Shown here: positions 422 through 54,987 of the stretch, piece by piece
How positions within the stretch are numbered: position 1 is the stretch's first letter
Layout of the letters: every line of letters begins with the position of its first letter
Origin: a virus
IMG/VR virus record: IMGVR_UViG_3300042878_002532
Span: 1 to 64,000 of that record
Strand: one strand, 5' to 3'
DNA length: 64,000 nt
Notes under the pieces: generated by a model
Told to the model about the DNA's origin: nothing
The model's database searches: none
The model's input: the letters and a program-made list of their open reading frames with translations, nothing else
Translations under genes and position numbers: made by a program

Positions 422-811
422 ATGGACAAGATATACACCGTTACTATATCATTTGAAGATTGGGAAAGTTCTTCTTTCAATACTGTTGGATTTTTTTCCG
501 ATAAGAAAATGGCTGAAGAAACAATGAAGAAGTGGAAAGATTTCTTTGAATATCATGACAAAGAGATATTCAATCTACAAAGAGATTCAAATGGAAACTT
601 TGAAAGTGATGAGATAGAAGATGAATGGTATTCTAGAGCATCTAAATATGAACAGATACGTTCGTATTCCGGAGTATCAATTGAAGAGTTTCCTTTTAAT
701 ACGGACATCTTCATAAAACAAACACAAATGCGTTCAAAGGAAATGCAGGGACTTGTTCAACAATGGGAAAGAGATTACAAAATAAAAAAAATAACAGACA
801 AAAATGAATAA
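422..811 (+). CDS. Hypothetical protein with C-terminal WERDYKIKKI tag
   Basis: ORF 401..811; the second Met (422) follows an AAAC..TATAA element; overlaps the nusA start. Confidence 0.75.
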   Translation: MDKIYTVTISFEDWESSSFNTVGFFSDKKMAEETMKKWKDFFEYHDKEIFNLQRDSNGNFESDEIEDEWYSRASKYEQIRSYSGVSIEEFPFNTDIFIKQTQMRSKEMQGLVQQWERDYKIKKITDKNE

Positions 812-2033
812 CTTATTCGAATCATTTACAGAGTTTAAAGATGCTAAGAACATCAACAGACAGGAAATAATGGGTATTTTAGAAGATGTCTTCAGAAACT
901 CACTTATCAAAAAATTTGGTAGTGATGAAAACTTCGACATAATCGTAAATACAGACCAGGGAGATTTAGAAATCTTCAGAAACAGAGAAGTAGTTGAAGA
1001 TGATTTTGAAGGATTTGACAAAAACCTTCATATCAAACTATCCGAAGTTATAAAGTTTGAACCAGACTTTGAGGTTGGTGAAGAGTTTACTGATGAAGTA
1101 AAATTGGCAGAGTTTGGTCATAGAACCATACTTGGAATCAAACAGAATCTTCTTTCTAAAGTAATGGATCTTCAAAAGAGTAACATCTACAACGAATACC
1201 AGAAAAGAATCGGTGAGGTAATCTCTGGTGAGGTTATCTTCGCAAACAAAAGAGAAACTATTGTTCAAGATTCTAATGGTAACGAACTTGTATTACCTAG
1301 AAACGAACAGATGCAGTCTGATTTCTTCAAAAAGGGAGACTATGTAAAAGCGGTCGTTGTTTCTGTAGAAAACGAACACAGACCGGTAGTCATTCTTTCA
1401 AGAAAGTCTGAGAGATTACTTGAACATCTTTTAGAGTTTGAGATTCCTGAGATAATGGATGGTCTTATAACAATCAAAGAGATTGCTAGAGTTGCTGGTG
1501 AAAAGTCTAAAGTTGTTGTAGAGTGTTATGATGATAGAATAGACCCGATTGGTATATGTGTTGGTTCAAAGGGTTCTAGGTTGTTTAGTATAAAGAAAGA
1601 GCTTAATGGTGAAAACATTGATATAATCAACTATACTCAAAATAATTCTTTACTTATACAGAGAGCTCTTAGTCCTGCGAAGTCTTCTTTAGTGAAGATT
1701 GACGAAGATACAAAGAAAGCAACGGTAACTATGAAAGGTGATCAGATTGCTTTGGCTATTGGTAAAGGTGGTGTTAATATAAAACTGGCACGTATTCTTA
1801 CTGGATATGACATAGAAGTATATAGTGAGGATGCGGAGGTTGAAGAAGACGTAATGATTGACGAGTTCCATGATGAGATTGACGAATGGATAATCAATGT
1901 ATTCAAAACGATAGGATTGGATAGTGCAAAAAGTATATTGGATCTTTCTATTGAAGAACTTGTTAAAAGAACAGATTTAGAAGAAGAAACAATAGAAGAA
2001 GTTCTAAAGATACTAGGATCGGAGTTTGAGTAA
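804..2033 (+). CDS. nusA: Transcription termination/antitermination factor NusA
   Basis: NusA N-domain, S1, KH1 (IDPIGICVGSKGSR), KH2 (ALAIGKGGVNIKLA) and acidic C-terminal HhH region; Bacteroidetes-like architecture. Confidence 0.95.
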   Translation: MNNLFESFTEFKDAKNINRQEIMGILEDVFRNSLIKKFGSDENFDIIVNTDQGDLEIFRNREVVEDDFEGFDKNLHIKLSEVIKFEPDFEVGEEFTDEVKLAEFGHRTILGIKQNLLSKVMDLQKSNIYNEYQKRIGEVISGEVIFANKRETIVQDSNGNELVLPRNEQMQSDFFKKGDYVKAVVVSVENEHRPVVILSRKSERLLEHLLEFEIPEIMDGLITIKEIARVAGEKSKVVVECYDDRIDPIGICVGSKGSRLFSIKKELNGENIDIINYTQNNSLLIQRALSPAKSSLVKIDEDTKKATVTMKGDQIALAIGKGGVNIKLARILTGYDIEVYSEDAEVEEDVMIDEFHDEIDEWIINVFKTIGLDSAKSILDLSIEELVKRTDLEEETIEEVLKILGSEFE

Positions 2034-2034
2034 T

Positions 2035-2397
2035 CTACTCCGGCTTTTTCTTGAAGCTAGAAGGTAGTATTCTATCTTCTTGCTTGAAGACTTTCAATAG
2101 AACGAATACAAGTGTTCCACCTGGAAGTAAAGAAATAGAAGTAAGTCCTAATACTTTAAGTATGTCTACGGATTGGTCTTTAATCAATTTAACTTCAGAT
2201 TCAGTAAGATTTCTTTTGTTACCATTTTCGTCTAACAACTGACCTTTTGCTGCTTTGTTTAGAAGTTCATAAACAACACGAGTTTCTTGTCCCTCACTTT
2301 TTAGTGCGGTGACAAAGTCGTTATATTTGACCTTCATTTTATCGACAAATTTTGTTACGTCTGACATGTATTCTTTTACGGATTTTATGTACCTCAT
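2035..2397 (-). CDS. LETM1-like domain protein
   Basis: LTESE..IKDQSVDILK....ISLLPGGTLV.VLLK....ILPSSF matches the LETM1/Mdm38 core pattern (LPGG...LPS.F). Confidence 0.6.
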   Translation of the reverse strand: MRYIKSVKEYMSDVTKFVDKMKVKYNDFVTALKSEGQETRVVYELLNKAAKGQLLDENGNKRNLTESEVKLIKDQSVDILKVLGLTSISLLPGGTLVFVLLKVFKQEDRILPSSFKKKPE

Positions 2398-2480
2398 TAT
2401 ATTCTAAACAAATTTAAACAAAAAATATATATTAAATATAAATAATGTGATATTTATTTTAATTTTTTAAATAAAATGTC

Positions 2481-2488
2481 TATCTTTG
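2481..2488 (+). promoter_or_regulatory. Bacteroidetes primary-sigma -7 element (TATCTTTG)
   Basis: Matches TAnnTTTG 20 nt upstream of ORF 2509; no clear -33 TTTG. Confidence 0.55.
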
Positions 2489-4384: not shown

Positions 4385-4801
4385 TTATTGAATACTTACT
4401 ACTTCAATATCGAATACTAAGTCTTGTCCAGCCAAAGGATGGTTTCCGTCGATGATGATTACATCTTCTTTCACTTCTTTAACGATTACTTGAACGACAC
4501 CGCCATCACCACCATCTGCTTGAAGCAATTGTCCTACTTCAACAGGGCCAGGCATTTTGTCTGCAGGCACTTCTACCACCAAGTCTTCTCTGATCTGTCC
4601 ATATGCTTGATCAGGAGCAACGGTAACAGATACTTTTTCTCCAATGTTTTTTCCCATAATTGCTGTTTCAAACCCTGGAATTATTTGTCCAGAACCAATT
4701 TGAAACTGTAACGGGTCTTTTCCTTCAGAAGAGTCAAAAACCTCTCCGTCAAGAAACCTTCCTGTGTAATGTACTTCTACCGTACTTCCTTGTGTTATCA
4801 T
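4385..4801 (-). CDS. FKBP-type peptidyl-prolyl isomerase (SlyD/SlpA-like)
   Basis: VHYTG..DGEVFDSS, IIPGFE, AYG, DGNHPLAGQDLVF. Confidence 0.92.
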   Translation of the reverse strand: MITQGSTVEVHYTGRFLDGEVFDSSEGKDPLQFQIGSGQIIPGFETAIMGKNIGEKVSVTVAPDQAYGQIREDLVVEVPADKMPGPVEVGQLLQADGGDGGVVQVIVKEVKEDVIIIDGNHPLAGQDLVFDIEVVSIQ

Positions 4802-6683: not shown

Positions 6684-7028
6684 ATGGGTAGTAGTAAAGA
6701 CTATAATATGGATACTTGGATTGAAATAGACAGGATATCAAAGGTGATGGAGGAGGAGAGTGACAGGTTCAACTACATAATCATTTCTATGCACATGTAC
6801 AACGCACTTCTTCGTAGCCATGAATTTAATTCTTATTTCAATCATGAAGAAATAGAAGGAATCACCGAAGTAGGGTCCATGAAAGGATACAGGGTTTTTC
6901 TTGACATGTATCAGAAACCAGATGAGATACTTCTTTCATGTGATGTAGTATCTTCAAGGGACTACAAGATAAATCAGATATTAGAAGGAACAGAATTTAT
7001 AAAAGAAAAAAGAGTCAAGATAACTTGA
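6684..7028 (+). CDS. Hypothetical protein with RDYKINQILE tag
   Basis: 114-aa ORF behind AAAC-N15-TATAAA. Confidence 0.7.
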   Translation: MGSSKDYNMDTWIEIDRISKVMEEESDRFNYIIISMHMYNALLRSHEFNSYFNHEEIEGITEVGSMKGYRVFLDMYQKPDEILLSCDVVSSRDYKINQILEGTEFIKEKRVKIT

Positions 7029-11593: not shown

Positions 11594-13591
11594 ATGGCAA
11601 TATTAGGTGGATCACCCCTCGGACTCATAGGACTTAAAAGTGTACCTACCAATGGTATGTCTGGATTCAACGCGGGTGCCTCAAGAAACGTAATTGTTGC
11701 GGACTATAACCGTTCCAAATCACTTTCTTTATTTACTGGTAAAAGAAGATTGAGAGCTTGGCCGAATTTGGCGGGTAAAACTGCTAAAGATCCCGGTGGT
11801 GCAGGTATAGATCCATCTGAGACTCAAGATACTACGGGTTTAGCAGATGTTTATGTTAATAAACAAGGTAAGCTTGTAGATGGTTATACTCCTTCAATAG
11901 AATCAAACTCAAGAGGTAGTAACCTTTTACACAACAATGATGTATATGATACCAGTGTTCTAAATATTTTAGAAAAGTTGGCAAAAACAAAGGCGGCTCT
12001 AAGACCTACCGATTTTGCTTATTTAAAATATTTAGGAGTATATCCTAATAATAGACTAATGATTGCGAGAAGATTTGTCGCACCATCTGGAGATAATATA
12101 ATGGTTAACAGAACTACTAAAGAAGTTCCTTCTATTGCAACGTTGGTTAGTTGGATTCCAGAAGGAACAGACTTTTTGGAAATCAGCTTTGGTGAGGTAT
12201 GGACAGAGGCAAAAGCCGATTTTACCGGAATGTTGAACAGCTTAGGTGAAGATTTCTCTAAGTCCGGTATGGGTAAAATAGCAGGTGCTGCTGGTAACGT
12301 ACTACCACTTCCGGGATTCACTGAGATATTTCAAAGAGCTTTCTTAGCTAAGATTGGTTTGTTAGAAGAAGATGCTGCAAACCAGATACCTGCCGGAAAC
12401 CCAAACTTAATTAAAGAAGCTAAGGTTAGAAAAACTGTTGGTTATAGTGAACCTGGATCAGGATTGATGGCTAAGATAACTATAAAGATGACTTGTGAAT
12501 ATGAACTTAAATTCATTGCAGGAATAGATCCTACTATAGTTTGGATGGATATAATAGGTATGATAGTAAGATTTGGAACTTCTGAATCTTCAAACTATGG
12601 TTTAAGTCAAGGAGTTGCTGCAAAGTTAGCTAGATGGGCTGCCAACCCTTATACGTTGATATCTGATGTTGTTTCGGGTATAAAAAATGCAATAACGTCT
12701 GCTCGATCAAAACTTGAAGAAGCGGTGACTGCAGTTTATAACGCAGCGACTGACGCTGCTAAGAATCTTAGTGATGGAAGTACTTCTGGTGATGAGAAAG
12801 AAATTTCAGAAAAGGCTGCCGCAGAAACTGCAGCGACGGAGGCAAAGGATGCTGGTTTTAATCTTATAGCCAAGCTTGTTGATATCGGAGAATCTGTTAT
12901 TAAAGCAGCGGTTATGAAATATAGAGTAGAGGTAATGGGTATTGTTAACGCACTTACCGGAAACCCTTCTACTCCTTGGCATATAACGATTGGAAATCCA
13001 ATGAGACCGGTTTTTTGTTCTGGTGACATGCTAACGACAAGCGTAGTTTTGAAGCTTGGACCAAATTTGGCGTTCAACGACCTTCCTTCTAGTATAATAG
13101 CAGATTTTGAGTTGACTAACGCTAGAAATCTTGGTATGCAAGAAATTATGGCAAAGTTTAACTCTGGTTATTTGAGAACAGTCGATGTTCAAAAAACTTT
13201 CTTTGAAACAACCGTCAAATTTGGAGCAGATGGAAAAGTTGCTTCACAGGAACCAGTTGGTGTTATGCCTGGAGAAGCAGAGTTCAAAAGTGATCTTGGT
13301 ACAAGTGGTACATCTGGAGCAGGAACATCTGGTACAAATGGAAACCAAGGTGGTGGAAACACTAACAATGGTGATACAAGTGGTAAAAGCGGTGATACTA
13401 GTGGTACTCAGGGCACTCAGGGTACTCAAGGTAATATAGGTAAAACTGAGACTTCAACTAATGTCAAAGAAGTTCCTGGTTCGGGTACACAAAAAACTTT
13501 GACTAAAGAAGAACAAGCTAAGTTAGATAAAGCAACGGCGGATGCAAAGGCAACAGCCGAAAAAAGCAAAATGACGGGTAAGAAAAAATAA
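11594..13591 (+). CDS. Putative baseplate/tail-tube-associated structural protein with GTS-rich tail
   Basis: 665 aa; TAATATATA at 11565; upstream of a gp53/LysM-like gene; PWHITIGNPMRP beta-rich core. Confidence 0.55.
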   Translation: MAILGGSPLGLIGLKSVPTNGMSGFNAGASRNVIVADYNRSKSLSLFTGKRRLRAWPNLAGKTAKDPGGAGIDPSETQDTTGLADVYVNKQGKLVDGYTPSIESNSRGSNLLHNNDVYDTSVLNILEKLAKTKAALRPTDFAYLKYLGVYPNNRLMIARRFVAPSGDNIMVNRTTKEVPSIATLVSWIPEGTDFLEISFGEVWTEAKADFTGMLNSLGEDFSKSGMGKIAGAAGNVLPLPGFTEIFQRAFLAKIGLLEEDAANQIPAGNPNLIKEAKVRKTVGYSEPGSGLMAKITIKMTCEYELKFIAGIDPTIVWMDIIGMIVRFGTSESSNYGLSQGVAAKLARWAANPYTLISDVVSGIKNAITSARSKLEEAVTAVYNAATDAAKNLSDGSTSGDEKEISEKAAAETAATEAKDAGFNLIAKLVDIGESVIKAAVMKYRVEVMGIVNALTGNPSTPWHITIGNPMRPVFCSGDMLTTSVVLKLGPNLAFNDLPSSIIADFELTNARNLGMQEIMAKFNSGYLRTVDVQKTFFETTVKFGADGKVASQEPVGVMPGEAEFKSDLGTSGTSGAGTSGTNGNQGGGNTNNGDTSGKSGDTSGTQGTQGTQGNIGKTETSTNVKEVPGSGTQKTLTKEEQAKLDKATADAKATAEKSKMTGKKK

Positions 13592-27638: not shown

Positions 27639-27827
27639 CTATCGGTCTGAGAGAAGAATGTCGAGCTTTATTTCTCTAATGGATTCGACGACTTCTTTCT
27701 CCAAAGACTCTCTTATTATTCCTTGAGCTATTAGGTTCATTATATTCACACAGGATAAGTCAACCTCTATTCCTTTGTAGAAAACCTGCCCAGAATCTTC
27801 AATCTTCAGGTCTTTCATCCATATCAT
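27639..27827 (-). CDS. Small protein with C-terminal REIKLDILL tag
   Basis: 62 aa, overlapping the uvsW stop. Confidence 0.65.
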   Translation of the reverse strand: MIWMKDLKIEDSGQVFYKGIEVDLSCVNIMNLIAQGIIRESLEKEVVESIREIKLDILLSDR

Positions 27828-30666: not shown

Positions 30667-30692
30667 AAAAAAGCCTCATTTTATTGAGGCTT
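30667..30692 (-). terminator. Intrinsic terminator
   Basis: AAGCCTCA..TGAGGCTT hairpin with a minus-strand T run. Confidence 0.65.
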
Positions 30693-31133
30693 GTTTATTA
30701 TTTCTAGTACTTCGTCTATCTTTTTGTTTCTTTCTTCTCGTATTCTTCTCTGTTCATCGAAAACATTGGCATACCTGAAACTTATAGATCCGTCGTTTTC
30801 TTTTAGTATGTCGTAGAAGTAGGTTATACTCGATTCGATAGATTCGGATCTAAGTATGTAGCCAATACAGGTTTCTAAATCTTGAAACTTCAATGTTTGT
30901 GTCGACACCGATTTTTGAATTAGTTTGTTGTTTACTACTTCACTAAATTGAAATGTCGGTGATTGTGATATGTAGTCTATTCTTTCATGTACTTGTTCAA
31001 AGAAGTATTCCAATTCTTGATCAGAAAGAATACTGACATCAAAAGAGAACTTCATTCTCAAAGAATTTTTAGACTTTACGTCTTTTATCAGTTCTTTAAT
31101 CTTATCATCTTTTGATAGTTGTGTAAGATTCAT
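30681..31133 (-). CDS. Hypothetical protein with C-terminal RNKKIDEVLE tag
   Basis: 150 aa directly downstream of clpP. Confidence 0.7.
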   Translation of the reverse strand: MNLTQLSKDDKIKELIKDVKSKNSLRMKFSFDVSILSDQELEYFFEQVHERIDYISQSPTFQFSEVVNNKLIQKSVSTQTLKFQDLETCIGYILRSESIESSITYFYDILKENDGSISFRYANVFDEQRRIREERNKKIDEVLEIINKPQ

Positions 31134-31138: not shown

Positions 31139-31813
31139 CTATTTTCTTTTTTGTATGATTTCGTCAATCATTCCATACTTTTTAGCCTCTGATGCAGTCA
31201 TCCAATAATCTCTTTCACTATCTTTGTAGACTTTATCGTAGACTTGACCGGTAGTATCTGAAATTATTTCATAAAGTTCCTTTTTCAAAGAGTTTATTTC
31301 CTTTGCTTCGATTTCCATGTCTGTTGCTTGAGCATAACCTGTATATCCAAGTGGTTGGTGTATCATTGTTCTACTTCTTCTAAGTGCTTTTCTTTTACCT
31401 TTAGTTCCAGAACAAAGTATTACTGCCGCCATAGAGGCTGCAAGTCCTGTGTTTACTGTGATAATGTCTGGTTTAATAAAATCCATTACGTCCAATAGTC
31501 CTAATCCAGAATAGACTGAACCTCCTCCTGAATCAATATAGATTTTTATGTCTTTATCACTTTCCATTTCTAAATATAGAAGTTGAGCTTTGATTATATT
31601 ACAAACATAGTCGTCAACTTCGGTGGATAAAAAGATTATTCTATCTTCTAATAGCTTAGAGAATATGTCAACAGACATTCCGTTGCTTTCTAATAGGTAG
31701 GGTGTGTTGTTGTTTTGTGTTCTTGATACAGTTTTGAAGTAGTCATCGAACGTAGAGCCAGATATACCATTGTCTCTCATATGAGATTTCAGAATCCTTT
31801 CGTTTCTATTCAT
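31139..31813 (-). CDS. clpP: ATP-dependent Clp protease proteolytic subunit
   Basis: DIFSKLLEDRIIFL, GLAASMAA (Ser), MIHQP (His), ERDYWM (Asp). Confidence 0.95.
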   Translation of the reverse strand: MNRNERILKSHMRDNGISGSTFDDYFKTVSRTQNNNTPYLLESNGMSVDIFSKLLEDRIIFLSTEVDDYVCNIIKAQLLYLEMESDKDIKIYIDSGGGSVYSGLGLLDVMDFIKPDIITVNTGLAASMAAVILCSGTKGKRKALRRSRTMIHQPLGYTGYAQATDMEIEAKEINSLKKELYEIISDTTGQVYDKVYKDSERDYWMTASEAKKYGMIDEIIQKRK

Positions 31814-33361: not shown

Positions 33362-35212
33362 ATGAAACTAAACAGATACTTAGACTTTATATCAGAAGGT
33401 ACCGGTAGTGGTAAAATGATGATATTCTACTCGGATGACCTGAGAGAGCTTTTCACACACATAGCGATGAGCGAGAGTTCCGCAAAAAATGTGGCAAGAG
33501 TACTTTTGGAAGTTGAAGACAACGACACCGTGAAAGACACTTATACTTTGATAGACAAAACCGACAAGAACGACATGATTTCGTATGTTCAGACAAGTAG
33601 GTTCTACAGAGAGTATCCTAACGGAATCTCGAGTCCGGATTTGGAAAAAGAAAGAGGTTACTCCATGAAGAGTAGCAAGTTCTGGAAAAGTGGAAGAACT
33701 CCTAACTACGGAATAGGAAGATGGGTAAGACACATATTCAACGACGTTCGTCAGACTCCTATAAAGAACGAAGATCTTGAGAGTTTTGTGAACGCCTACA
33801 AGTCTACCTACGATACAATGGCCAAACGTTCTGAAAAATTTAAATTGGTAAAAGGTGAGGATATAAGATACTGGTATTTAGAAGACAGATACGAAGAAGT
33901 GAGTGGACAGCTTGGAAACTCTTGTATGAGATACAAAAGATGTCAGTCATATCTGGATATCTATGTCGAGAATCCGGAATCGTGTAGTCTGCTTATATTG
34001 AAAGGTAATGATCCAGACAAGATAGCAGGACGTGCACTTATCTGGACTATACACGAAGGTCCAGGTGTTGCTGGAAGAAGGTTCATGGACAGGATCTACA
34101 CGATAAAGGACAGCGACAAGATTCTTTTTGAGGCATACGCGAAAGAGAACGATATTCTTAGATCACAATCTTATACGTACAAAATAAAGGTTAAGGAAGG
34201 TAGGTACGACTACTATCCTTATATGGACACGCTTACGTGCTATGATTATGAAAAAGGGATTCTATCTTCTTCTCTTGATGGCGAAGATATTTTAGGTCTA
34301 CAAAACACGGATGGAACCGCATCGGACAACGAAGGAAGAGTTTGGAGTGAGTATCACGGTGAGTATATAGACGAGGATGACGCCAGATATTGTGAAGACG
34401 TTGACGGTCCCGTGCACTATGAGAGCACGGTTTGGTTAGAATATTTAGACATATATGTTACCGATAATGCAGATACGGTTTATAGCGAATATTTTGATGG
34501 AAGCTACTATAGTGAAGATGCCGTTCGTTCGGAATGTATGGATGACTATCTAAAAGCAAACGATAGTGATGTTATAGAGATTAAAACTAGTGCGGATGGA
34601 GACACCGATTATTGTGTTTTAGATCGTAAGGACCTATATATTGAGGTAGATGACGAATATTACTATAGAAAGAATTATATATTAGATCCTTACACAGGTG
34701 AATATCATTTCGGTGATGAGAAGGTTGATGGTGTGAAATATATCAAATATTTAGAGAATAAGTTAGAAGAAGAACTTGAAGTAAAAGAGAAATATACTCT
34801 AGCAGGTGGAAAGTTTGATTTAGAAAAATATAGAACCGATCTTAAAAAGATGTTTGTCGAATATGTTCCTACCGATGACTTCATAAAAGAAGTGAAGACA
34901 AAGGGTGGTGATAATAGTTATTACTATCATTTACCTGGACTATATGCTTGGATAATAAGAGACCAGATGAATTATGGAACCATAAATGCAGGTTATCAAT
35001 CAAGTGCAGCATTGTCTAGCTACAAGAAACTTTTATTTGATATTTTGGAAGAGATGTCTGAAGAATTTGATAAAGAAAATATTAAATTATGGTACGATGA
35101 TAAGTTTTCACGCTCTTGGAATCTAAGATCCGTATTTAAAATATTTGACAATATAGACATCACTAAATTTCCTACGGAAATATACAAAAGAATATTCTTT
35201 TTTAACATATGA
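33362..35212 (+). CDS. Conserved phage protein (SCM..GRALIW..MDRIY..YPYMDT), CTS-like N-terminus
   Basis: 616 aa; MKLNRYLDFISE; TAATATATA ends 4 nt before the ATG. Confidence 0.75.
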   Translation: MKLNRYLDFISEGTGSGKMMIFYSDDLRELFTHIAMSESSAKNVARVLLEVEDNDTVKDTYTLIDKTDKNDMISYVQTSRFYREYPNGISSPDLEKERGYSMKSSKFWKSGRTPNYGIGRWVRHIFNDVRQTPIKNEDLESFVNAYKSTYDTMAKRSEKFKLVKGEDIRYWYLEDRYEEVSGQLGNSCMRYKRCQSYLDIYVENPESCSLLILKGNDPDKIAGRALIWTIHEGPGVAGRRFMDRIYTIKDSDKILFEAYAKENDILRSQSYTYKIKVKEGRYDYYPYMDTLTCYDYEKGILSSSLDGEDILGLQNTDGTASDNEGRVWSEYHGEYIDEDDARYCEDVDGPVHYESTVWLEYLDIYVTDNADTVYSEYFDGSYYSEDAVRSECMDDYLKANDSDVIEIKTSADGDTDYCVLDRKDLYIEVDDEYYYRKNYILDPYTGEYHFGDEKVDGVKYIKYLENKLEEELEVKEKYTLAGGKFDLEKYRTDLKKMFVEYVPTDDFIKEVKTKGGDNSYYYHLPGLYAWIIRDQMNYGTINAGYQSSAALSSYKKLLFDILEEMSEEFDKENIKLWYDDKFSRSWNLRSVFKIFDNIDITKFPTEIYKRIFFFNI

Positions 35213-38303: not shown

Positions 38304-38891
38304 TTAAAACTTTCTTTTGAATGTTCTGTTTTTGTAGCTTTTAGACTCTCCAATCTGGTCGATATCTACTGCTTGAGCTTTAAGAGCTTGAGCTTCTGGA
38401 TCTAAACCTGTTTCAGTTTTATCAGAACCTCTTTCAAACTCACCTTGAGCTTGTGCTCTTTTTTGAGCTTGTGCTTGTACTCTTCTTTCTTTTTTACCTT
38501 GAGCTTCTGCTTGAGCTTGTGGGTTGTTAAGGTAATCAACAACTTTTTCAACGTCGTCAGTTTTCAAATCGATTCCGTCTACTCTAAATTGTCCTGTTTC
38601 AGATGGTTGATCAATCTCATGTCCATCATGATTGATAACATTTCTTTCAACTGAAGCACCTAACAATTCTGCTAATCCTTCTAATCCACCTTCTACTGCG
38701 TCTACGTCTCCATATGCTAATGGATTGTCTCTTACACCTGGTTCTTCTGTAGGAATAACAGATGGTCTAGCCGGTCTTGGCGTTGTATCTGGTCTTGTTG
38801 GTGCTGGAATCGTCTCAGGAGAAACGCCTGGTCTTGACGGTGCCGGAGCATTTTCATTTGTTTTTACAAATTGATTATATTTTTTAATCAT
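38304..38891 (-). CDS. Pro-rich/QAQ-repeat protein with CTS-like N-terminus
   Basis: MIKKYNQFVKTNE; TAATATATA at 38914(-). Confidence 0.75.
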   Translation of the reverse strand: MIKKYNQFVKTNENAPAPSRPGVSPETIPAPTRPDTTPRPARPSVIPTEEPGVRDNPLAYGDVDAVEGGLEGLAELLGASVERNVINHDGHEIDQPSETGQFRVDGIDLKTDDVEKVVDYLNNPQAQAEAQGKKERRVQAQAQKRAQAQGEFERGSDKTETGLDPEAQALKAQAVDIDQIGESKSYKNRTFKRKF

Positions 38892-39464: not shown

Positions 39465-39812
39465 TTATACAGAACCTTTGATTTCCCACGGATTCCAGTC
39501 TTTTATAGGTTCCATTAGTTTCTTTTTAATAGTTTCATATACGGGTATTAGATTGCCTGATGTCTGGTATATAGCTATGTAATTATTTTGATACTTTTCG
39601 GAATCAAAGTCTTCTATTTCTTTATCTTCTAAAACTGAATCTAATCGACTTTGTCTTTCCCATGCTTTTACTGAGTTTATATAGCTATCTACAAAGAATA
39701 TAAGAAATCCATTCTCTTCTTTGTGATTACGGATCATATCAAAGTCTATTCCATCATAGAAAAAGACATTGGTTCCGTTTATTTCTATATTTTCAATCAA
39801 AGTCAAAGCCAT
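39465..39812 (-). CDS. Hypothetical protein (internal WERQSRLDSVLE)
   Basis: ORF 39465..39827; the start is uncertain. Confidence 0.65.
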   Translation of the reverse strand: MALTLIENIEINGTNVFFYDGIDFDMIRNHKEENGFLIFFVDSYINSVKAWERQSRLDSVLEDKEIEDFDSEKYQNNYIAIYQTSGNLIPVYETIKKKLMEPIKDWNPWEIKGSV

Positions 39813-40017
39813 CGAATAAGTCGTCAATCTTTTTATCTCTAAAAGATCCTATTTGTTTTCCTTCAAATTGTTCATTTTTTTCGACTTTATTTTTGAACTC
39901 TTCAAATGCCGCTCTTGATATTTTAGAAAGTGCCATTGCACCTGCTGATATCTTTCCTTCGTTTAATCTATCTGATAGATAACTTACGAACATTGGGTAT
40001 AGTCTTTCGTTTTTCAT
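39793..40017 (-). CDS. Small protein with C-terminal RDKKIDDLF tag
   Basis: ORF 39793..40032; Met at 40017 follows a TATATA. Confidence 0.65.
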   Translation of the reverse strand: MKNERLYPMFVSYLSDRLNEGKISAGAMALSKISRAAFEEFKNKVEKNEQFEGKQIGSFRDKKIDDLFDGFDFD

Positions 40018-40070
40018 AAAAATATATATCAAATAACACCTTTCCGAATCGTGGAAAATATATATACTTT

Positions 40071-40803: not shown

Positions 40804-40835
40804 AAAAAACCCACTCATTTTGAGTGGGTTTTTTT
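40804..40835. terminator. Bidirectional terminator, CCACTCA family
   Basis: AAAAAACCCACTCA-TTT-TGAGTGGGTTTTTT. Confidence 0.9.
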
Positions 40836-42258
40836 ATTTTCCAAAGCCGCCGAATATATCCATTACAACAGATAATCTTTCAGTTATCTCAGGCATTCCC
40901 AATGGTTCGATAATCTTGTTTATCGGTGCCAAAATACATTTCGCAAACTGAATGTCATAATCAATCGCTGGTGCAATCTCAATCGGATAAGAACCTCTAA
41001 TATAAGCAAAGATATCTCCATTGTTATTGTTTTTACAATAGTAGTATTTAATCTTAGTTCCAGACTTTACAAATTCGTACTTAGTCTGTAAATACTTGTT
41101 CTGATGTAAAAGATAGTTATGATAAGCACTTGCTTTTACTGCGAAGTGAGCACCATTTACGAACTGAAGTGGTAAAGATTTATCATCTATTACTTTGACA
41201 TCGTAGTTTGAACAAGAAGACTGCATAGCAATGTCGTCAATATCAGCCAACTCAAACTCTTTACGTAGAGCTTTGATTAGTTTAAGTAAATCCTTTATGT
41301 TGAATGTGTTCGAATGTTCAAAAAGATACTTCACAATGTTGATAATCTTCTCTCTAGCGAACAATGGAGTCGAAGATCTTACTAACTCTACTCCTTTAGG
41401 GAATAAGTATGTCAATCTATCATAAGGAATTCCATCTTCAAAAGAAACATGTTGAATATATTTCTTCTTAGCCAATGAGATAATAGATTCAGAAATTCTT
41501 TCAAGCTCGAAATCTTCTTTGTTTTCTACTCCAAATGTTGCTGCGTAGTCTTCTAAACATTGTTTAAAGTATCCACCATATCTAAAATGGTCCATTCCGT
41601 GAATGTAATCTACTTCTCTCGACCAGTTCCATTCTACTTCACAAGTAAGTGCTCCACTTCCAATAAGTTTCATGAATCCTCTGTCCTTAATGAAAAGTCC
41701 GTCAGAGATTATCATCTCATAGTCTGTTGTAAGAAGTTCTTCAAATTCTGCAAGATTCGCAGCAGTTCCTAAATGATTAGGGTTGTCTGTTTTTATGTTG
41801 TTCTGTGAAAGAACTATAAATTTCTTATCAATCGATTTTAGATTTTCAGTACCTAAAAGAATATCTCTCCAATCAGAGTGGTTTATTGCAGGAAGAAAAG
41901 AAACGAATAGTGAATCGGTATCTGCATAGATTGAAACCGGTTCACTTCTATCTATTGCAGTTACGTTTCTAACACAAAGTCTTTTGTGTAACTCAAAGTC
42001 AAAGTGCCATTGGTTGTACCAATAGTCTTCGTTGACTCTATCCATAGTTTGTGTAAGGTCTCTTCCTTGAGCGGTGATTGTTCCTGCAACGTGGTTGTTG
42101 TACAATATGAAGTATGCTGTTGCGAAGGCTCCATAAGATCCATTCAGAACTAATTTTAGAGCGGTTTGCATCGCATTGTAGTATTCGACGGTCTTCTTAA
42201 CCTCGATTGCTTGCCTTTTCAGTTCTTCTATCTTTTTAAGCTTTTCTTCCTTTGTCAT
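40834..42258 (-). CDS. Family B DNA polymerase, C-terminal subunit only (gp43B-like)
   Basis: Motif B KLVLNGSYG, ITAQGR, motif C YADTDS, KKKY, KGVELVRSSTP; no exonuclease domain or motif A. Confidence 0.9.
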   Translation of the reverse strand: MTKEEKLKKIEELKRQAIEVKKTVEYYNAMQTALKLVLNGSYGAFATAYFILYNNHVAGTITAQGRDLTQTMDRVNEDYWYNQWHFDFELHKRLCVRNVTAIDRSEPVSIYADTDSLFVSFLPAINHSDWRDILLGTENLKSIDKKFIVLSQNNIKTDNPNHLGTAANLAEFEELLTTDYEMIISDGLFIKDRGFMKLIGSGALTCEVEWNWSREVDYIHGMDHFRYGGYFKQCLEDYAATFGVENKEDFELERISESIISLAKKKYIQHVSFEDGIPYDRLTYLFPKGVELVRSSTPLFAREKIINIVKYLFEHSNTFNIKDLLKLIKALRKEFELADIDDIAMQSSCSNYDVKVIDDKSLPLQFVNGAHFAVKASAYHNYLLHQNKYLQTKYEFVKSGTKIKYYYCKNNNNGDIFAYIRGSYPIEIAPAIDYDIQFAKCILAPINKIIEPLGMPEITERLSVVMDIFGGFGK

Positions 42259-42259: not shown

Positions 42260-42640
42260 TCATTTTATTATTTTTGTCGTGTCTATTGCTATTACTTTTG
42301 TTTCCTTTATTTCTATAATATCTACCTTTGTCTTTGTTGTGTCTTTTATCGGTCTTCTGAATACCTTCTTAGGTATTATCTCTACAATAGGTACTATCTT
42401 TCTACTTTCTTCTAATATCTTTGATATTGAGTCTACTTTGTGTACAAGCTCTATGTTTTCGGATTTCAACATTTGTTTTTCATCAGATATTTGACTTATA
42501 TCAGATTTTAGACTTACTATCCAAAAAATTAGAACGATTGTTATAAATACCAGTGTTACTATCGAAGATGCACCGTTTGTTGTTTTGTCTCTACTTCCGT
42601 AGTTTCTTCTTCTGTTGTCGTATTTGTATCTATTATTCAT
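42260..42640 (-). CDS. Single-TM coiled-coil membrane protein
   Basis: Basic N-terminus, TM IVTLVFITIVLIFWIV, then coiled coil. Confidence 0.65.
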   Translation of the reverse strand: MNNRYKYDNRRRNYGSRDKTTNGASSIVTLVFITIVLIFWIVSLKSDISQISDEKQMLKSENIELVHKVDSISKILEESRKIVPIVEIIPKKVFRRPIKDTTKTKVDIIEIKETKVIAIDTTKIIK

Positions 42641-43421
42641 CTTCTTCTGAAAAATCTTGTTCGAATGAAAGCATTAGGTTTGAGTCTTCGTGTTTAACAA
42701 GCATAAAGTTGTCAAATATGTGAAACTGAATATCATCACTATCATTCACACATCCTAAGAACTTTTTGTTTAGTATTAAGTTAGAACTTCTGTCCGCGTC
42801 GATATTGTCTATCTCCAGCTCCCATGCTGCAGTTTCTGATATCACTACCTTTCCTGCGTTTACTCCAATCTGAAGTATTTTTTCTCCGTTTATAGAAGAA
42901 AGTTTTTTGATATCAGAGAAATCGTTTTTCGCAATCGTAAAAGACCATCTACTGTTTTTCAGGTGAAGACCTTGTTCTAATTTTTGTTTGTTCATGTCTT
43001 TTATCTCGTAGTGTTCACCACCGATCCAGTTCACTTTAAGTTTACCACCAACAATCTGCAATGCTCTTGCATCCATTATACTATCATCTTCCTGAGACTC
43101 TTTGTGAGTTATCTCTATAGTCACCTTATCACTTTCCTTTAGAAAGTTTAGATTCTTCACGAACTTCTTCGCGTTTAGAATGATGATATCTATACCATAT
43201 TCCAAGTCATCTTTCATCTCGAAGAGCTCACTTGTAGGTATATTGTAGTTTTTAAATGCAAGTACGGTAGCCTTACCTAAGATAGAGTACATCATCGTGT
43301 TTCCACTTTCTATCTTAATCTTTATGTTGTCGGATATCTTAGTCAGGTCTTCTAACTTAGATATAAACTCTGGAAGCTTTTCTGATTTTATTCTGAATTT
43401 GTCTTTTCCTGTTTTTGCCAT
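42633..43421 (-). CDS. DNA sliding clamp (gp45/PCNA-like)
   Basis: About 262 aa, two-domain alpha/beta pattern, acidic tail, near the polymerase gene. Confidence 0.6.
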   Translation of the reverse strand: MAKTGKDKFRIKSEKLPEFISKLEDLTKISDNIKIKIESGNTMMYSILGKATVLAFKNYNIPTSELFEMKDDLEYGIDIIILNAKKFVKNLNFLKESDKVTIEITHKESQEDDSIMDARALQIVGGKLKVNWIGGEHYEIKDMNKQKLEQGLHLKNSRWSFTIAKNDFSDIKKLSSINGEKILQIGVNAGKVVISETAAWELEIDNIDADRSSNLILNKKFLGCVNDSDDIQFHIFDNFMLVKHEDSNLMLSFEQDFSEEDE

Positions 43422-43492
43422 AATCAATTTTATTTCTATACATGATATAGAAAAAGTCAAATTTTGTTTATTTGTTTTTAATATATAAAGTC

Positions 43493-44551: not shown

Positions 44552-44581
44552 AAAAAACCACTCATTTGAGTGGCTTTTTTT
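44552..44581. terminator. Bidirectional terminator, CCACTCA family
   Basis: AAAAAACCACTCA-TT-TGAGTGGCTTTTTT. Confidence 0.85.
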
Positions 44582-45650
44582 ATGCGTTATATTTGAAGTT
44601 GTGATTCTCTTCTATATTTAGAAGTGTTTGGTAAATCAACTTAACAATACTCTTAACATCGTCTTTGTGAACAGTTTCACAAGTTGTATGCATGTATTTC
44701 AAAGGAAGTGAAATCAATACAGAAGGAACTCCACCATTTGAATAAGCGAATGCATCTGTATCTGTTCCCGTCGATGTTGAACTTGCTGCCAACTGAACAG
44801 GAATATCTTTTTTATCAGCAACATCCAATACTAACTTTCTCAATTTGTTGTGTACTGCAGGTGCTCTTGTGATAACACCACCTTGACCAGCAACGTGTTC
44901 ACCTTCTTTGCTTGCGGTATAACAAGGTGATGATGTTTCATGACACACGTCTGTTATGATTGCTACATTTGGTTTGATTGTTTGAGTAACCATTTGAGCA
45001 CCTCTCAATCCAATCTCTTCCTGAACAGAGTTCACGATATAAAGTTTGAAAGGAAGTTTTTTACCTTTCTCTGATAATTTTCTAGCAACTTCTGCAATCA
45101 TGAATCCACCGATTCTGTTGTCCAATGCTCTTCCTGTGTAATAGTCTGTTCCAAGTTTCATAAACTCATCTTTAAAAGTGATTACAGTTCCAACATTAAT
45201 ACCCATTTGAAGAACTTCTTCTTTACTTGCAGCACCCACGTCGATAAAGATAGAATCTAAATCTGCTTCTTTCTTTCTATAAGAAATGTGAATAGCTGGA
45301 TGTCCAAAGATTCCGTCTATTGGTCCATTATCTCCCCAAAGTGTTACTCTCATAGAAGGAGCGATTGTAGTATCAGACCCACCGTTTCTGATTACTTTGA
45401 TATACCCTTTTGAATCGATGTGGTTTACAAACCAACTAATTTCGTCGGCATGTGCCTCAATAACTACTTTAAAGTCTGAGTCCATGTTTCCCATAATACC
45501 ATAAGCAGTACCATAGTTGTCAAGTTCTACTTTATCGACATACTTAGAGATATAGTCCATCCAAACTTTTTGACCACCTAATTCATATTCGAATCCTGTT
45601 GGTGCATTGCTGTTTAAATAGCTTTCTAAAAATTTTTCGTCTAATTTCAT
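44580..45650 (-). CDS. M42 family metallo-aminopeptidase
   Basis: AHADEI, ALDNR, QEEIGLRGA, ITDV, GTDTD, YMHT. Confidence 0.93.
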   Translation of the reverse strand: MKLDEKFLESYLNSNAPTGFEYELGGQKVWMDYISKYVDKVELDNYGTAYGIMGNMDSDFKVVIEAHADEISWFVNHIDSKGYIKVIRNGGSDTTIAPSMRVTLWGDNGPIDGIFGHPAIHISYRKKEADLDSIFIDVGAASKEEVLQMGINVGTVITFKDEFMKLGTDYYTGRALDNRIGGFMIAEVARKLSEKGKKLPFKLYIVNSVQEEIGLRGAQMVTQTIKPNVAIITDVCHETSSPCYTASKEGEHVAGQGGVITRAPAVHNKLRKLVLDVADKKDIPVQLAASSTSTGTDTDAFAYSNGGVPSVLISLPLKYMHTTCETVHKDDVKSIVKLIYQTLLNIEENHNFKYNA

Positions 45651-47470: not shown

Positions 47471-47965
47471 TTATCTTCCTAAGTAGTTCATTAGTTCAAT
47501 CATATTCTTTATAGAATATCCGAATGCTTCTAAGTTTTTTACAGTATCTCTAAGAAAAGTAATGTAGGATTCAATCAACTCAATACATCTATCATTTTCT
47601 GCGATGTGTGCATCGATAAGTATTGCTTTCTCTCCCATATTAGTCTTTACTTGAAATCCGATTGCGTAGAATACAAACTTATCTTGTCTCAACTTTTTAA
47701 TCTTTGTTGTTTCCTTACTTCTTTTGTTTAAGAAGAAATTTATATTTTCGTTTATTTGTTGTCTAAACGATAAAGCAGTAGATTGTGCCTCTAATATGTA
47801 TTTAGAATTGGATGGATTTGAAAGATCCGTAGTAAGAGCCTTGAAAAGTGGCTCTACTTGTTTATTCCATTCTGCTCTTTTGTCATTGAAAAGTTCTTCC
47901 AATCTTTCATTGGTTTCTTTTGTCTTTTGTATTCTGTCTAGTTCTTCTTGATTATAAAGATTCAT
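47471..47965 (-). CDS. uvsY: UvsY-like recombination mediator
   Basis: Helical protein ending FLRDTVKNLEAFGYSIKNMIELMNY, resembling the UvsY C-terminus. Confidence 0.6.
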   Translation of the reverse strand: MNLYNQEELDRIQKTKETNERLEELFNDKRAEWNKQVEPLFKALTTDLSNPSNSKYILEAQSTALSFRQQINENINFFLNKRSKETTKIKKLRQDKFVFYAIGFQVKTNMGEKAILIDAHIAENDRCIELIESYITFLRDTVKNLEAFGYSIKNMIELMNYLGR

Positions 47966-48380
47966 CTTCGTCTGGTAATATTTTTCTCATCTTCCATTCT
48001 CTATGGATGTTTTTGTTGAAGCAGCTTGACAAAGAGTTTTCAATCATCTCTCTGAAATTAGTCTTTAAGTTATTACTTATATATTCTTCTATGATGTCAC
48101 ACCATTTATCTAAAAGTTCTTTGTCTTCTATGGCTATTGTTGATACATCGGTATTTTCGGAAGAAAAGAATATACATTCGTTTCTTCTATCAAAATGTAT
48201 TGAAAGCCTTCCTGATATAGTTCCCCAATGGTTATTTGTTTGTGACTTTGGTTCTGTATCTATGTCGAAGCTTATCCAATAGTTTTTATGGCCGTATTTT
48301 ATGTCTTTTTGTATCGTCACACGCTCATCATCTTTATGTTTCATCATAAAAGTAATGAACTCATCTATTTCTTCTCTCAT
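47952..48380 (-). CDS. Hypothetical protein with C-terminal REWKMRKIL tag
   Basis: 142 aa behind AAAC-N16-TATACA. Confidence 0.7.
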   Translation of the reverse strand: MREEIDEFITFMMKHKDDERVTIQKDIKYGHKNYWISFDIDTEPKSQTNNHWGTISGRLSIHFDRRNECIFFSSENTDVSTIAIEDKELLDKWCDIIEEYISNNLKTNFREMIENSLSSCFNKNIHREWKMRKILPDEDESL

Positions 48381-48466: not shown

Positions 48467-49195
48467 TTATTTGTAGGCTAAATTTATTGTCTCACCTGCG
48501 TATTTTCCGGTGAGTGCATTTTGGTACTCTACTATTTTATAGCTCACCATCTTCGAACCCTGTTCTGCTAGATTTAACAAATATTGTATTGATTGATTTC
48601 TTTCTTCACCAGGTGTCATATTCTTTATCTCTTCTGCGTTCTGCTGAACAACTTTCATCGCTGAGTTTGCCAAGTCTGTCACTTGTTTTCCAAAGATTGG
48701 ATTGTCTACCGATCCTCCTTTTTTCAATTGAAACAAATATGCTTGTGCTTTCATAAGAAGACCATCATCGTATTTTCCGGATCCTTCGGACTGAAGTCTT
48801 TTCAGGAATCCAATTGCGGCATCCATTACTCCTTCCGGTGGTGTAGCTTGTTTAGTCGCTGCTGCAGAACATAGAACAAAGAATAAAACTATTAGAATAA
48901 GTGTTATGATTATAGTTCTAAATAAGGCAGGGTGCTTTTCTTTGAAACTTTTTATCTTATCCAGTACCTTGTCGAAGAACTTTTTGACGAGACTAAGTGC
49001 CATCAATCCTTTCTCCATCAGTGTCAACATAAGATTTCTTATAGAATCGTTTATCTTTTCAAAGAAGTCTCCTATCTTTTTCATCCAATCCGTAAATCCT
49101 TCGTTTATAGAATCAAAATTACATAACTCATCAAGAGCTGCAAAAGTTCTTTGTTCATTTATCGAAAAGGATTCAAAATTGTTTAGATGTTTCAT
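48467..49195 (-). CDS. CTS-bearing protein with an internal TM helix
   Basis: MKHLNNFESFSINE..SINEG; TM TIIITLILIVLFFVLC. Confidence 0.75.
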   Translation of the reverse strand: MKHLNNFESFSINEQRTFAALDELCNFDSINEGFTDWMKKIGDFFEKINDSIRNLMLTLMEKGLMALSLVKKFFDKVLDKIKSFKEKHPALFRTIIITLILIVLFFVLCSAAATKQATPPEGVMDAAIGFLKRLQSEGSGKYDDGLLMKAQAYLFQLKKGGSVDNPIFGKQVTDLANSAMKVVQQNAEEIKNMTPGEERNQSIQYLLNLAEQGSKMVSYKIVEYQNALTGKYAGETINLAYK

Positions 49196-53394: not shown

Positions 53395-53475
53395 AAACAT
53401 GTAACATCATGATATACTAATAACTAATATTTGGTTTTTCTATTTGGATATATAAATCAAAATAAAAATATCAGT

Positions 53476-54291
53476 ATGTTACTAAAAGTAGGATCAAAAG
53501 GAGATGACGTAAAGTCACTTCAGGAAAAGCTGGGACTTACAGCTGACGGCTCGTTCGGACCTGGAACAGAGAAAGCCGTAAAAGAATGGCAAGCAAAAAA
53601 CGGATTGACGGCAGACGGAGTTATCGGTGATAAAAGCTGGCAACTTTTGGCTTTATTCGGAACAAAAAAAGAAGAGGTTGTAATACCTGCAAGTGAATTT
53701 AAGCTTGAGGCATTAAAAGGACATCTTCCGGATTCAGTAATCGCTCAGATTCCTGACACAGCAAAAAAATTCAACATTACAAATGTATTGAGACTATCTC
53801 ACTTCTTGGCACAATGTGGTCATGAGTCTGGTGGATTCAAAGCGGTTTCTGAAAACCTAAACTATTCTTCTGACGGATTGAAAAAAATATTCGGAAAGTA
53901 TTTCCCTGGTGATACTACGGCTTATGCTAGAAACCCGGAAAAGATTGCTTCTAAAGTTTATGCAAACAGAATGGGTAATGGAGACGAAAGTTCTAAAGAA
54001 GGATTCAAATTCAGAGGTAGAGGATATATCCAGTTGACCGGAAAATCAAACTATCAAGGATTCACAAAATTCATTGGAGAGGATTGCGTAGCAAATCCGG
54101 ATTTAGTAGCGACTAAATATCCATTGGCTTCTGCGGCATTCTTTTTTGACTCTAATAAACTATGGTCTATTTGTGATAAAGGTGCAGATGATGCTACCGT
54201 AACTGCAGTTACTAAAAGAGTGAATGGTGGTACTATTGGATTACCGGATAGAATAAAACATTTCAAAGAGTTTTACAACTTACTTAAATAA
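53476..54291 (+). CDS. Endolysin: peptidoglycan-binding domain plus GH19 domain
   Basis: LKVGSKGDDVKSLQ..DGSFGPGT..ADGVIG; HFLAQCGHESGG; FRGRGYIQLTG. Confidence 0.92.
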   Translation: MLLKVGSKGDDVKSLQEKLGLTADGSFGPGTEKAVKEWQAKNGLTADGVIGDKSWQLLALFGTKKEEVVIPASEFKLEALKGHLPDSVIAQIPDTAKKFNITNVLRLSHFLAQCGHESGGFKAVSENLNYSSDGLKKIFGKYFPGDTTAYARNPEKIASKVYANRMGNGDESSKEGFKFRGRGYIQLTGKSNYQGFTKFIGEDCVANPDLVATKYPLASAAFFFDSNKLWSICDKGADDATVTAVTKRVNGGTIGLPDRIKHFKEFYNLLK

Positions 54292-54297
54292 AAAAAG

Positions 54298-54325
54298 AAA
54301 AGAGAGCCACAAAGCTCTCTTTTTT
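54298..54325. terminator. Bidirectional intrinsic terminator
   Basis: AAAAGAGAGC..GCTCTCTTTT. Confidence 0.8.
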
Positions 54326-54987
54326 CATGATAGAATATCTTTTATCTTAGCATCTCTGATTAGAACCTTTGATAGAATTCCTGATTGTTTGTCAATGGCT
54401 TCGAATATCTTTGTTTTTGAAAAGAATCCATTATAGATTGTGTTGAAATCGTCTTTCATATGTATAAGTTTCAAAAAAAGATTAGGTTGTAATCTTATAA
54501 TAAACTTTTCTACATATTTATCTTCTCTCAACTCTAAAATATAAGCTTGTTCCATTTCTGGTCCAAAATTGAACTCTGATGGTTCAAATCCTAAACTCTT
54601 TATAAAATCTAATACGAATGAATACTTTTCATATCGACATTTGAGTTTTGTTTCTGTGTCGTAGTATGAAAATCTCGAAGGCATCTGATTAAAATCCATT
54701 TCGGTTCCTATATGATATGTGTCATTTTCCAATAGTTCCGAAAGATCAGATTCTCTCCTATCTTCTTTGTTTAAGATATTCTTTTTTTTAACAAAGTGAG
54801 ATAGCTTAGTATCAAAAAGAAAATGTGTTTCTCCTGTTTCTTCTGCTCTTTTTTCACATTCGTCGATGAAATATTGATCTATCTCAGATCTTTCATATTC
54901 CCATGAAGATTCTTCTTGTATAAATCCTTCTGGTTTGCTACCATCGTCTATTTCTATAGTACCATCTGGTAATTGTCTAATATTCAT
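54325..54987 (-). CDS. Hypothetical protein ending RDAKIKDILS
   Basis: 220 aa, last gene of a minus-strand operon. Confidence 0.75.
   Translation of the reverse strand: MNIRQLPDGTIEIDDGSKPEGFIQEESSWEYERSEIDQYFIDECEKRAEETGETHFLFDTKLSHFVKKKNILNKEDRRESDLSELLENDTYHIGTEMDFNQMPSRFSYYDTETKLKCRYEKYSFVLDFIKSLGFEPSEFNFGPEMEQAYILELREDKYVEKFIIRLQPNLFLKLIHMKDDFNTIYNGFFSKTKIFEAIDKQSGILSKVLIRDAKIKDILS

Follow-up and report, generated by a model that had tools for sequence, protein, structure and literature searches.

Shared docking tails are a known principle, and several kinds have been described. The capsid targeting sequence (CTS) of phage T4 is an N-terminal peptide found on late head-internal proteins, where it is cut by the prohead protease at L/I-x-E. 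Clamp-binding peptides of the PIP-box type follow the geometry Q-x-x-[ILM]-x-x-[FY]-[FY], while known degrons and adaptor tails include those of ssrA (LAA-COOH), MuA (RRKKAI-COOH) and SspB (ClpX-binding, LRVVK-COOH). C-terminal basic helices are used to dock scaffolding and cargo proteins on HK97-fold shells. The element described here is a short C-terminal peptide (the tag) shared by small proteins of a virus represented by IMG/VR record IMGVR_UViG_3300042878_002532, and it is considered as a possible docking tag. This record is a single 113,293-bp contig, linear by its IMG/VR class and with a CheckV completeness of approximately 17%; the window analysed consists of its first 64,000 nt.

The preliminary description of this DNA had listed the peptide on eight small proteins together with two internal variants, and all of the quoted peptides were found where they had been placed (Table 1). 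Using the strict pattern R-[DEN]-x-K-[ILM]-x-x-[ILV]-[LF], which was derived from the contig data itself, six matches were identified among the open reading frames (ORFs) of the whole contig, all of them in the window and all no more than 14 residues from the C-terminus. Approximately one in fifteen proteins on this piece is tagged, all of them small and otherwise unrelated. In 500 whole-protein shuffles of the contig ORFs, 0.10 matches were expected (0.014 for C-terminal ones), and the proposed C-terminal enrichment above the expectation for a shuffled proteome is thus upheld. With a slightly wider pattern (type A), shuffling of only the last 29 residues gave 0.05 expected matches compared with the six found; local C-terminal composition as the cause was ruled out by such tail-only shuffles. 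The reversed strict pattern had no matches in the contig ORFs. A seventh copy, in the gene at 401-811, ends in T in place of L/F. As a consensus the tag reads [K]-[SQ]-hydrophobic-hydrophobic-R-[DEN]-x-K-[IL]-[ND]-x-[IL]-[LI], usually with zero to two polar residues between it and the stop codon.

The contig is syntenic with LR745206.1, a 634,780-bp genome of an uncultured phage, which has homologues for 85 of the 128 contig ORFs, mostly collinear, located at 88-220 kb and with 30-87% identity. The portal protein of the contig shares 82% identity with that of LR745206, 79% with LR756502, 51% with LR756504, 47% with LR756501, 36% with LR756500 and 32% with the Prevotella Lak phages. According to Al-Shayeb et al. 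2020 (PMC7162821), genomes of 634, 636, 642 and 735 kb are the biggest members of the 'Mahaphage' clade, with Bacteroidetes as their predicted hosts. Given the synteny with LR745206, the portal identities and this placement, the contig is a fragment of a Mahaphage-clade huge phage, not of a mid-sized one, and the window represents its conserved T4-like core.

LR745206.1 allowed the validation of the pattern on a genome independent of the contig. Its 972 ORFs contain 93 type-A matches, 82 of which occur within 20 residues of the stop codon, with approximately 3 and 0.4 expected, respectively; tail-only shuffles predict 0.56 C-terminal tags. The tagged share of this proteome is approximately 8%, or one protein in about twelve, and for 54 of 83 tagged proteins the distance from tag to stop codon is 0, 1 or 2 residues (mode 1). 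The tag is also present in LR756502. Orthologues of several window proteins in LR745206 carry it as well: that of 401-811 (98040-98438) terminates in RDYKIKEIL-stop, that of 6684-7028 (104947-105339) has RDLKIESIL, and the C-terminus of that of 39793-40032 is RDQKIDDIFDELDF. Orthologues of 47952-48380 possess REWKMKKIF in an IMG/VR relative and the degenerate RDYQMEKIF in LR745206. The internal RQSRLDSVL of 39465-39827 is represented in its orthologues by RENKIDSIL (IMG/VR relative) and RESKIDSIL (LR745206), indicating that it is a true, though internal, copy.

Searching IMG/VR with a strict DNA pattern for R-D-x-K-I-D-x-I-L identified 59 loci, approximately 43 of which have the motif at a C-terminus. 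Homologues of this phage accompany most of these C-terminal loci, which lie on AT-rich contigs as long as 476 kb, and many carry additional tagged ORFs. The other loci, mostly on GC-richer contigs without homologues, look like chance internal matches. Among 263 metagenomic members of the 54325-54987 family the tag is kept in every representative, and among 100 members of the 30681-31133 family it is kept in all distinct tails but one. Two further occurrences were set aside. The motif is also found inside the UvsW-like helicase that LR745206 encodes, where it is incidental, as the window orthologue does not conserve it, and an ORF of 49 amino acids (aa) ending in RRSKIKKVF, downstream of the gp55-like sigma gene in the same frame (contig 100629-100778), was dropped for want of an LR745206 counterpart. 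Several stop codons lie behind the sigma gene of LR745206 where this ORF would be, and it is probably not a gene.

The tag takes a second form in the sister lineage LR756504. In a 100 kb sample of this genome, all 23 occurrences of R-K-x-[IK]-I-x-[DE]-L-[LI] are C-terminal, no more than 4 residues from the stop codon (0.25 expected), and they sit on at least 16 unrelated bodies; no type-A tag was found in the same sample. Compared with type A, the whole tag set of LR756504 has a basic in place of an acidic residue at position 2 and I in place of K at position 4. This second form is a minority in the whole genome of LR745206, with 10 C-terminal matches against 1.45 expected. Neither form was found in the samples taken from LR756501 (200 kb), LR756500 (50 kb), Lak-A1 (100 kb, with TAG translated as Gln), Tenacibaculum phage PTm1 (50 kb) or Chryseobacterium phage MA9V-1 (50 kb), absence in relatives being based on samples of 50-200 kb. 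Orthologues of 54325-54987 were not found in LR756504, LR756501 or LR756500.

Comparison of the proteins without their tags shows that the carriers do not form a single family. The 90 tag-less bodies of the contig and LR745206 fall into 85 BLASTP clusters (E<=1e-3), linked only by four orthologue pairs and one paralogue pair, to which phmmer adds a few weak links. The bodies thus differ, without the whole-length similarity that a single paralogous family would show, and the earlier statement that the carriers are otherwise unrelated and not full-length paralogues holds at the level of both programs. In six orthologue pairs, tag residues are 67% identical compared with 38% for the bodies (p=7e-5). 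Codons at R1, [DEN]2, K4 and [IL]5 follow the background of LR745206 (AGA 62 versus 62.7 expected, GAT 46 versus 45.4, AAA 66 versus 61.4), from which it follows that selection acts on the protein. A DNA-level repeat or recombination module is out, with codons varying among copies at background usage. Positions 8 and 9 show a synonymous lean (ATA 45 versus 29 expected, TTA 43 versus 31 expected), and this is read as an RNA-level overlay beside the downstream start, in view of the 61% of tagged genes that overlap the start of their downstream neighbour (41% for untagged small genes).

Both available AlphaFold2 models place the tag in a helix. In the model of 54325-54987 (mean predicted local distance difference test score, pLDDT, 80) helix 204-219 contains the tag and helix 74-86 the internal copy; in that of 30681-31133 (mean pLDDT 88) the tag is part of the terminal helix 127-147. 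An alignment of 29 sequences of the 54325-54987 family shows R211 and K214 to be invariant, with the dozen residues preceding the tag among the least conserved, as in a variable linker. No similarity over the cut-offs was found for 28 tagged proteins (eight from the window, 20 from LR745206) in Pfam and PHROGs, and all of them are ORFans. The tag segment gave no usable match in the ESM Atlas, and neither of the two models (54325-54987, 30681-31133) had a match at E<=0.001 when searched with Foldseek against the PDB. A VIA-align wide search with the 30681-31133 model returned weak HK97-fold rows only (Z<=4.9), which are not trusted.

Three of the tagged small proteins resemble a part of the capsid protein. 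LR745206 encodes a gp23-like major capsid protein at 200752-202434 (Pfam Gp23, E=2e-26), and the tagged proteins at 6684-7028 of the window and at 104947-105339 and 207176-207907 of LR745206 are paralogues of its C-terminal part. For the 243-aa capsid-like tagged protein, phmmer gave E=1e-13, and the motif VGS..I.Y.D.YMK is common to all three. The likeness of 6684-7028 itself is weak (Pfam Gp23, E=0.007, below the cut-off), with VGS..Y.D.Y common to it and the capsid protein. These paralogues are capsid-protein fragments that would be expressed outside the late class.

The T4 late promoter has the consensus TATAAATA, and a word resembling it, the 9-mer TAATATATA, is the most strongly enriched upstream of genes in this clade, occurring within 70 nt of 29 of the 128 contig genes and 141 of the 972 genes of LR745206. 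The portal and terminase genes have it upstream, as do most genes of the greatest length, which are presumably structural (for example 23790-27602, 11594-13591 and 60457-64623), and it looks like the late promoter of the clade. In LR745206 it was found within 70 nt upstream of 0 of the 83 tagged genes, compared with 141 of the 889 untagged ones (Fisher p=2e-6), and the same comparison limited to proteins of up to 250 aa gave p=3e-5, the late and non-late classes being defined here by a promoter-like word and not by expression data. The six C-tagged genes of the window point in the same direction (0 of 6), a number too small for a test. The opposite is seen for the N-terminal CTS-like tag MxKxxxF/YxxF/YxxE (for example in 32235-33290, 33362-35212, 38304-38891 and 48467-49195), which in LR745206 is enriched behind TAATATATA (35 of 98 versus 106 of 874, odds ratio 4, p=2e-8). 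Both tags occur in one protein in two cases, with approximately eight expected (p=0.012). None of the tagged proteins of the window carries the N-terminal tag, as had been reported, and the suggestion that the two tags mark different protein sets is borne out by this near exclusion; by the promoter assignment the C-terminal tag is a mark of the non-late class and the N-terminal tag of the late class. No promoter motif specific to tagged genes was identified, with no 8-mer enriched upstream of them and TAnnTTTG likewise not enriched.

The preferred reading of these results, to which about an even chance is given, is that the C-terminal helix acts as a docking or address tag for a single reader, common to all carriers and co-evolving with the tag. 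That the charge at position 2 is reversed throughout a whole set of tags argues for one common partner that changed too, and a single common reader is inferred from it. Of the amphipathic-helix docking tag first proposed, the helical, C-terminal and protein-level character and the presence on unrelated small proteins are retained, and the set-wide switch fits one partner. The tag would be kept by protein-level selection on many unrelated small accessory proteins in one Mahaphage subclade, and would be read by one reader changing together with it between lineages. The first candidate for this reader, possible though doubtful, is the phage Clp machinery, that is, phage ClpP with the ClpC-like or ClpX-like unfoldases of the complete relatives, which would clear or deliver an early class of proteins. 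M42-type enzymes degrade peptides released by Clp-type proteases, and the M42 aminopeptidase of this phage would finish the released peptides. A broader scheme can be offered only tentatively and is rather improbable: two orthogonal terminal codes, with the N-terminal CTS-like tag for late capsid cargo and the C-terminal helix for early or middle accessory proteins, the latter with a co-evolving receptor for which Clp unfoldases would be the best choice.

The ClpP gene first noted in the window is genuine (Table 1). The gene directly 3' of it is tagged in the contig, in LR745206 and in LR756504, and the three encoded proteins (150, 210 and 114 aa) have nothing in common except the tag; they were ruled out as orthologues, being alike in the tag alone. 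In LR745206, the proteins encoded immediately upstream of the second ClpP gene and of the gene for the ClpC-like unfoldase have tag-like ends (RDETIDEIL and RENIINDIL), which were recognised post hoc. The ClpC-like unfoldase (701 aa, LR745206 423224-425329) and a ClpX-like one (385 aa, LR756504 37587-38744) both lack the usual N-terminal adaptor-binding domains and keep a VGF loop of the ClpP-docking type, spotted by eye. AAA_2 unfoldases with the VGF loop are present in LR745206, LR756502 and LR756504, and none is encoded on this fragment of approximately 17%; ClpP and a cognate unfoldase are thus both available, the unfoldases in relatives only. ClpP, ClpA and ClpX have been described in T4-like jumbo phages by Iyer et al. 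2021 (PMC7824862), in the available text of which the tag is not mentioned.

Several observations weigh against a common reader, or against Clp in that role. The distance from tag to stop codon reaches 22 residues and conserved internal copies occur 52-59 residues from the end, which would be unusual for a terminal degron; no known degron class was found at the exact C-terminus, where 0-22 residues follow the consensus. The gene following the second ClpP of LR745206 has no strict tag. Lak-A1 and LR756500 have ClpP too, with no tag found in the 50-100 kb sampled, making the phyletic link between ClpP and the tag weak, and in LR756501 an unfoldase is present with neither ClpP nor tag found. As a phyletic marker of the tag ClpP is not exclusive, and M42 is no better. 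The LR756504 set consists partly of tandem paralogues (two families of four). Gene calls throughout were heuristic longest ORFs (128 on the whole contig, 972 on LR745206.1), and the promoter-based definition of the classes, given above, is to be counted here as well.

Were there no common reader, the tag could be an intrinsic helix, either a stability cap against C-terminal proteolysis by the host or a means of self-association, recombining onto genes as a module. Both AlphaFold2 models agree with this in showing the tag within a regular helix that extends the fold, polar residues come after the tag (polar residues reportedly stabilise bacterial protein C-termini, a finding ascribed to Parsell, Silber and Sauer, 1990), and tandem arrays of tagged genes suggest spread driven by duplication. 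A generic cap, however, would need no invariant R and K at set spacing on 80 unrelated bodies, and an intrinsic helix would neither change set-wide between sister lineages nor be kept off late genes; nine residues are also too short for a stable coiled coil. This explanation is considered improbable. A signal acting in cis as translation ends, either the nascent peptide within the ribosome tunnel or A/U-rich RNA, that tunes termination and re-initiation in packed operons would account for the 54 of 83 tags lying 0-2 residues from the stop codon, for the excess of downstream-start overlaps among tagged genes (61% versus 41% of untagged small genes) and for the ATA-TTA bias at positions 8 and 9. 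Such a signal is very unlikely, as positions 1-5 have no synonymous bias, spacing to the stop codon extends to 22 residues with conserved internal copies 52-59 residues from the end, 16 of the 83 tagged genes lack a same-strand downstream neighbour, and amphipathic patterns of this kind are typically those of contacts between proteins.

Binding to the phage sliding clamp, with the tag as a peptide of the PIP-box type or of the type found in the tails of T4 gp43, gp33 and gp55 recruiting small proteins, had been among the partners suggested. The spacing I5-x-x-I8-L9, preceded by a polar D/E/N at a distance of three residues from I5, fits PIP-box geometry, the profile over 83 tags ([DEN]2, [IL]5, [ILV]8 and [LI]9, near the C-terminus) agrees with the pattern of clamp peptides, the C-terminal location is that of T4 and archaeal clamp clients, and tagged genes are not late, as would suit the replication period. 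In the 39793-40032 protein the tag overlaps a tail, IDDLFDGFDFD, similar to the polymerase tail MDIFGGFGK. Yet the polymerase, which alone is certain to be a clamp client, has neither the invariant R nor the invariant K and ends in D-[IL]-F-x-G-F, the C-terminus of the gp55-like sigma factor (GLHSL) has no tag, and 82 ORFan clients, approximately 8% of the proteome, exceed any known clamp interactome. The clamp assignment of 42633-43460 (given earlier as 42633-43421) was moreover not confirmed, with no Pfam match and no PDB sequence match. The clamp proposal is weakened in that the polymerase and the gp33-like protein use another tail and the share of clients is too large, and is judged unlikely. 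The capsid or another shell would be the reader if the tag were a targeting peptide that loads cargo into the prohead, in the manner of the C-terminal helix of scaffolds or of encapsulin cargo. T4-like phages with huge capsids, the basic C-terminal helices known on HK97-fold shells, the three tagged paralogues of the capsid protein and the HK97-fold look-alikes of the 30681-31133 model would be in keeping with it. That no tagged gene is behind the late-type promoter used by structural genes argues against capsid targeting; an N-terminal CTS-like tag enriched on late genes is already present in the genome and excludes the C-terminal one, and the fold matches are under a meaningful level. Little credence is accordingly given to this explanation, which is highly improbable, and the phage-built compartment once suggested as a partner is without support.

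Table 1. Tag-bearing genes and neighbouring features of the window, with tag positions in window coordinates
Feature	Coordinates	Strand	Terminal sequence or evidence	Tag position	Remarks
Tagged small protein, 136 aa (129 aa from ATG at 422)	401..811	+	WERDYKIKKIT	770-796 (RDYKIKKIT)	4 residues ahead of stop
Tagged small protein, 114 aa	6684..7028	+	SRDYKINQIL	6957-6983 (RDYKINQIL)	stop 14 residues on
Tagged 62-aa protein	27639..27827	-	IREIKLDILL	27651-27677 (REIKLDILL)	3 residues after motif
Tagged 150-aa protein	30681..31133	-	ERNKKIDEVL	30705-30731 (RNKKIDEVL)	7 residues after motif; in predicted C-terminal helix 127-147
Phage ClpP protease	31139..31813	-	Pfam CLP_protease E=1e-66		
Internal degenerate tag, 120-aa protein	39465..39827	-	RQSRLDSVL	39630-39656	residues 58-66
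Tagged 74-79-aa protein	39793..40032	-	FRDKKIDDLF	39814-39840 (RDKKIDDLF)	6 residues after motif; continues into acidic-aromatic tail DDLFDGFDFD
B-family DNA polymerase, C-terminal half, 474 aa	40834..42258	-	PHROG E=3e-49		profile 488-839 of 856
M42 (TET-type) aminopeptidase	44580..45650	-	Pfam Peptidase_M42 E=2e-74		87% identical to LR745206 orthologue
Tagged 142-aa protein	47952..48380	-	HREWKMRKIL	47976-48002 (REWKMRKIL)	7 residues ahead of stop
Tagged 220-aa protein	54325..54987	-	IRDAKIKDILS-stop	54331-54357 (RDAKIKDIL)	1 residue ahead of stop; internal degenerate copy RESDLSELL at 54730-54756, residue 78

The polymerase had been reported to terminate in MDIFGGFGK, and this is correct: its tail, VVMDIFGGFGK, is without the R-[DEN]-x-K core and is likely a clamp-binding tail. 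As only the C-terminal half of the profile is matched by 40834-42258, the polymerase seems to be split into separate genes. The sequence D-[IL]-F-x-G-F, common to 39793-40032 and the polymerase, has the look of a clamp-binding motif of this phage, and the 39793-40032 product may be a gp33-like co-activator of late transcription. The 27639-27827 gene overlaps the stop codon of the upstream gene for a UvsW-like helicase, the identity of which is taken from the LR745206 orthologue (75% identical). Other recognisable genes of the contig encode a T4-type portal, terminase, a clamp-loader subunit, an Mre11-like nuclease and an RNase II/R-like enzyme, and Pfam added ClpP, the M42 aminopeptidase and an FKBP isomerase, with a weak match to UvsY. 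The FKBP-type prolyl isomerase, which has an insert, is encoded at 4385-4801, and the RNase II/R-like exoribonuclease, with CSD and S1 domains, at contig 107706-109634. The M42 aminopeptidase provides context for a phage-encoded proteolysis route and is not a component of the tag. A related IMG/VR contig of 134.6 kb seems to start near the same genomic position, judging by the offsets of two genes. In LR756501 (735 kb) another motif, DPYGEExW, was found in at least 38 copies in 200 kb, at C-termini, internally and directly behind CTS-like N-termini; it was not found in this contig or in LR745206.

The small orphan genes of huge phages number in the hundreds and cannot be annotated, and the tag sets apart a class of them with a shared fate. 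Interest for phage biology is high because it gives a handle on approximately 8% of the orphan proteome in the largest known phages, and a single tag peptide could serve to pull down the reader. If a phage Clp reader proved true, this would be the first virus-encoded class-wide system of protein turnover or delivery, acting on approximately 8% of proteins; with a different reader it would still be a new interaction hub, among phage proteins or between those of phage and host. The N-terminal tag (late) and the C-terminal tag (non-late) complement each other, which suggests that terminal peptides serve these phages as a general sorting code. A full-text literature search, in which the available portions of PMC7162821 and PMC7824862 were included, found no published description of the tag.

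While docking tails in general are familiar, this one departs from each of the described kinds. Like encapsulin cargo-loading and microcompartment peptides, it is a terminal amphipathic helix on unrelated proteins that would have one reader; for those peptides the reader is a shell, whereas here the capsid is the only known shell, and by promoter motif the tagged genes are not co-expressed with capsid genes. Clamp peptides (T4 gp43, gp33 and gp55, the RB69 polymerase tail and the PIP-box) have the same hydrophobic residues at i, i+3 and i+4 and several clients per hub, but the tag has an invariant Arg and Lys, aliphatic instead of aromatic residues and tens of ORFan clients, and the polymerase tail of this phage is different. 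AAA+ degrons are likewise short C-terminal peptides read by one unfoldase, and phage ClpP and the unfoldases of relatives are present; the tag has no sequence likeness to them, is helical, is not strictly terminal and occurs on approximately 8% of the proteome, and the N-domains to which adaptors of the SspB or MecA type bind are missing from the phage unfoldases. The T4 CTS (IPI-III, Alt) is similar in being one short terminal peptide on unrelated proteins of a T4-like phage that serves as an address, and this genome possesses a CTS-like N-terminal tag of its own, MKxLxxFExFxxE. The C-terminal tag has neither the N-terminal position nor the late expression of a CTS, with 82 of 93 matches C-terminal and 0 of 83 tagged genes behind a late-type promoter.

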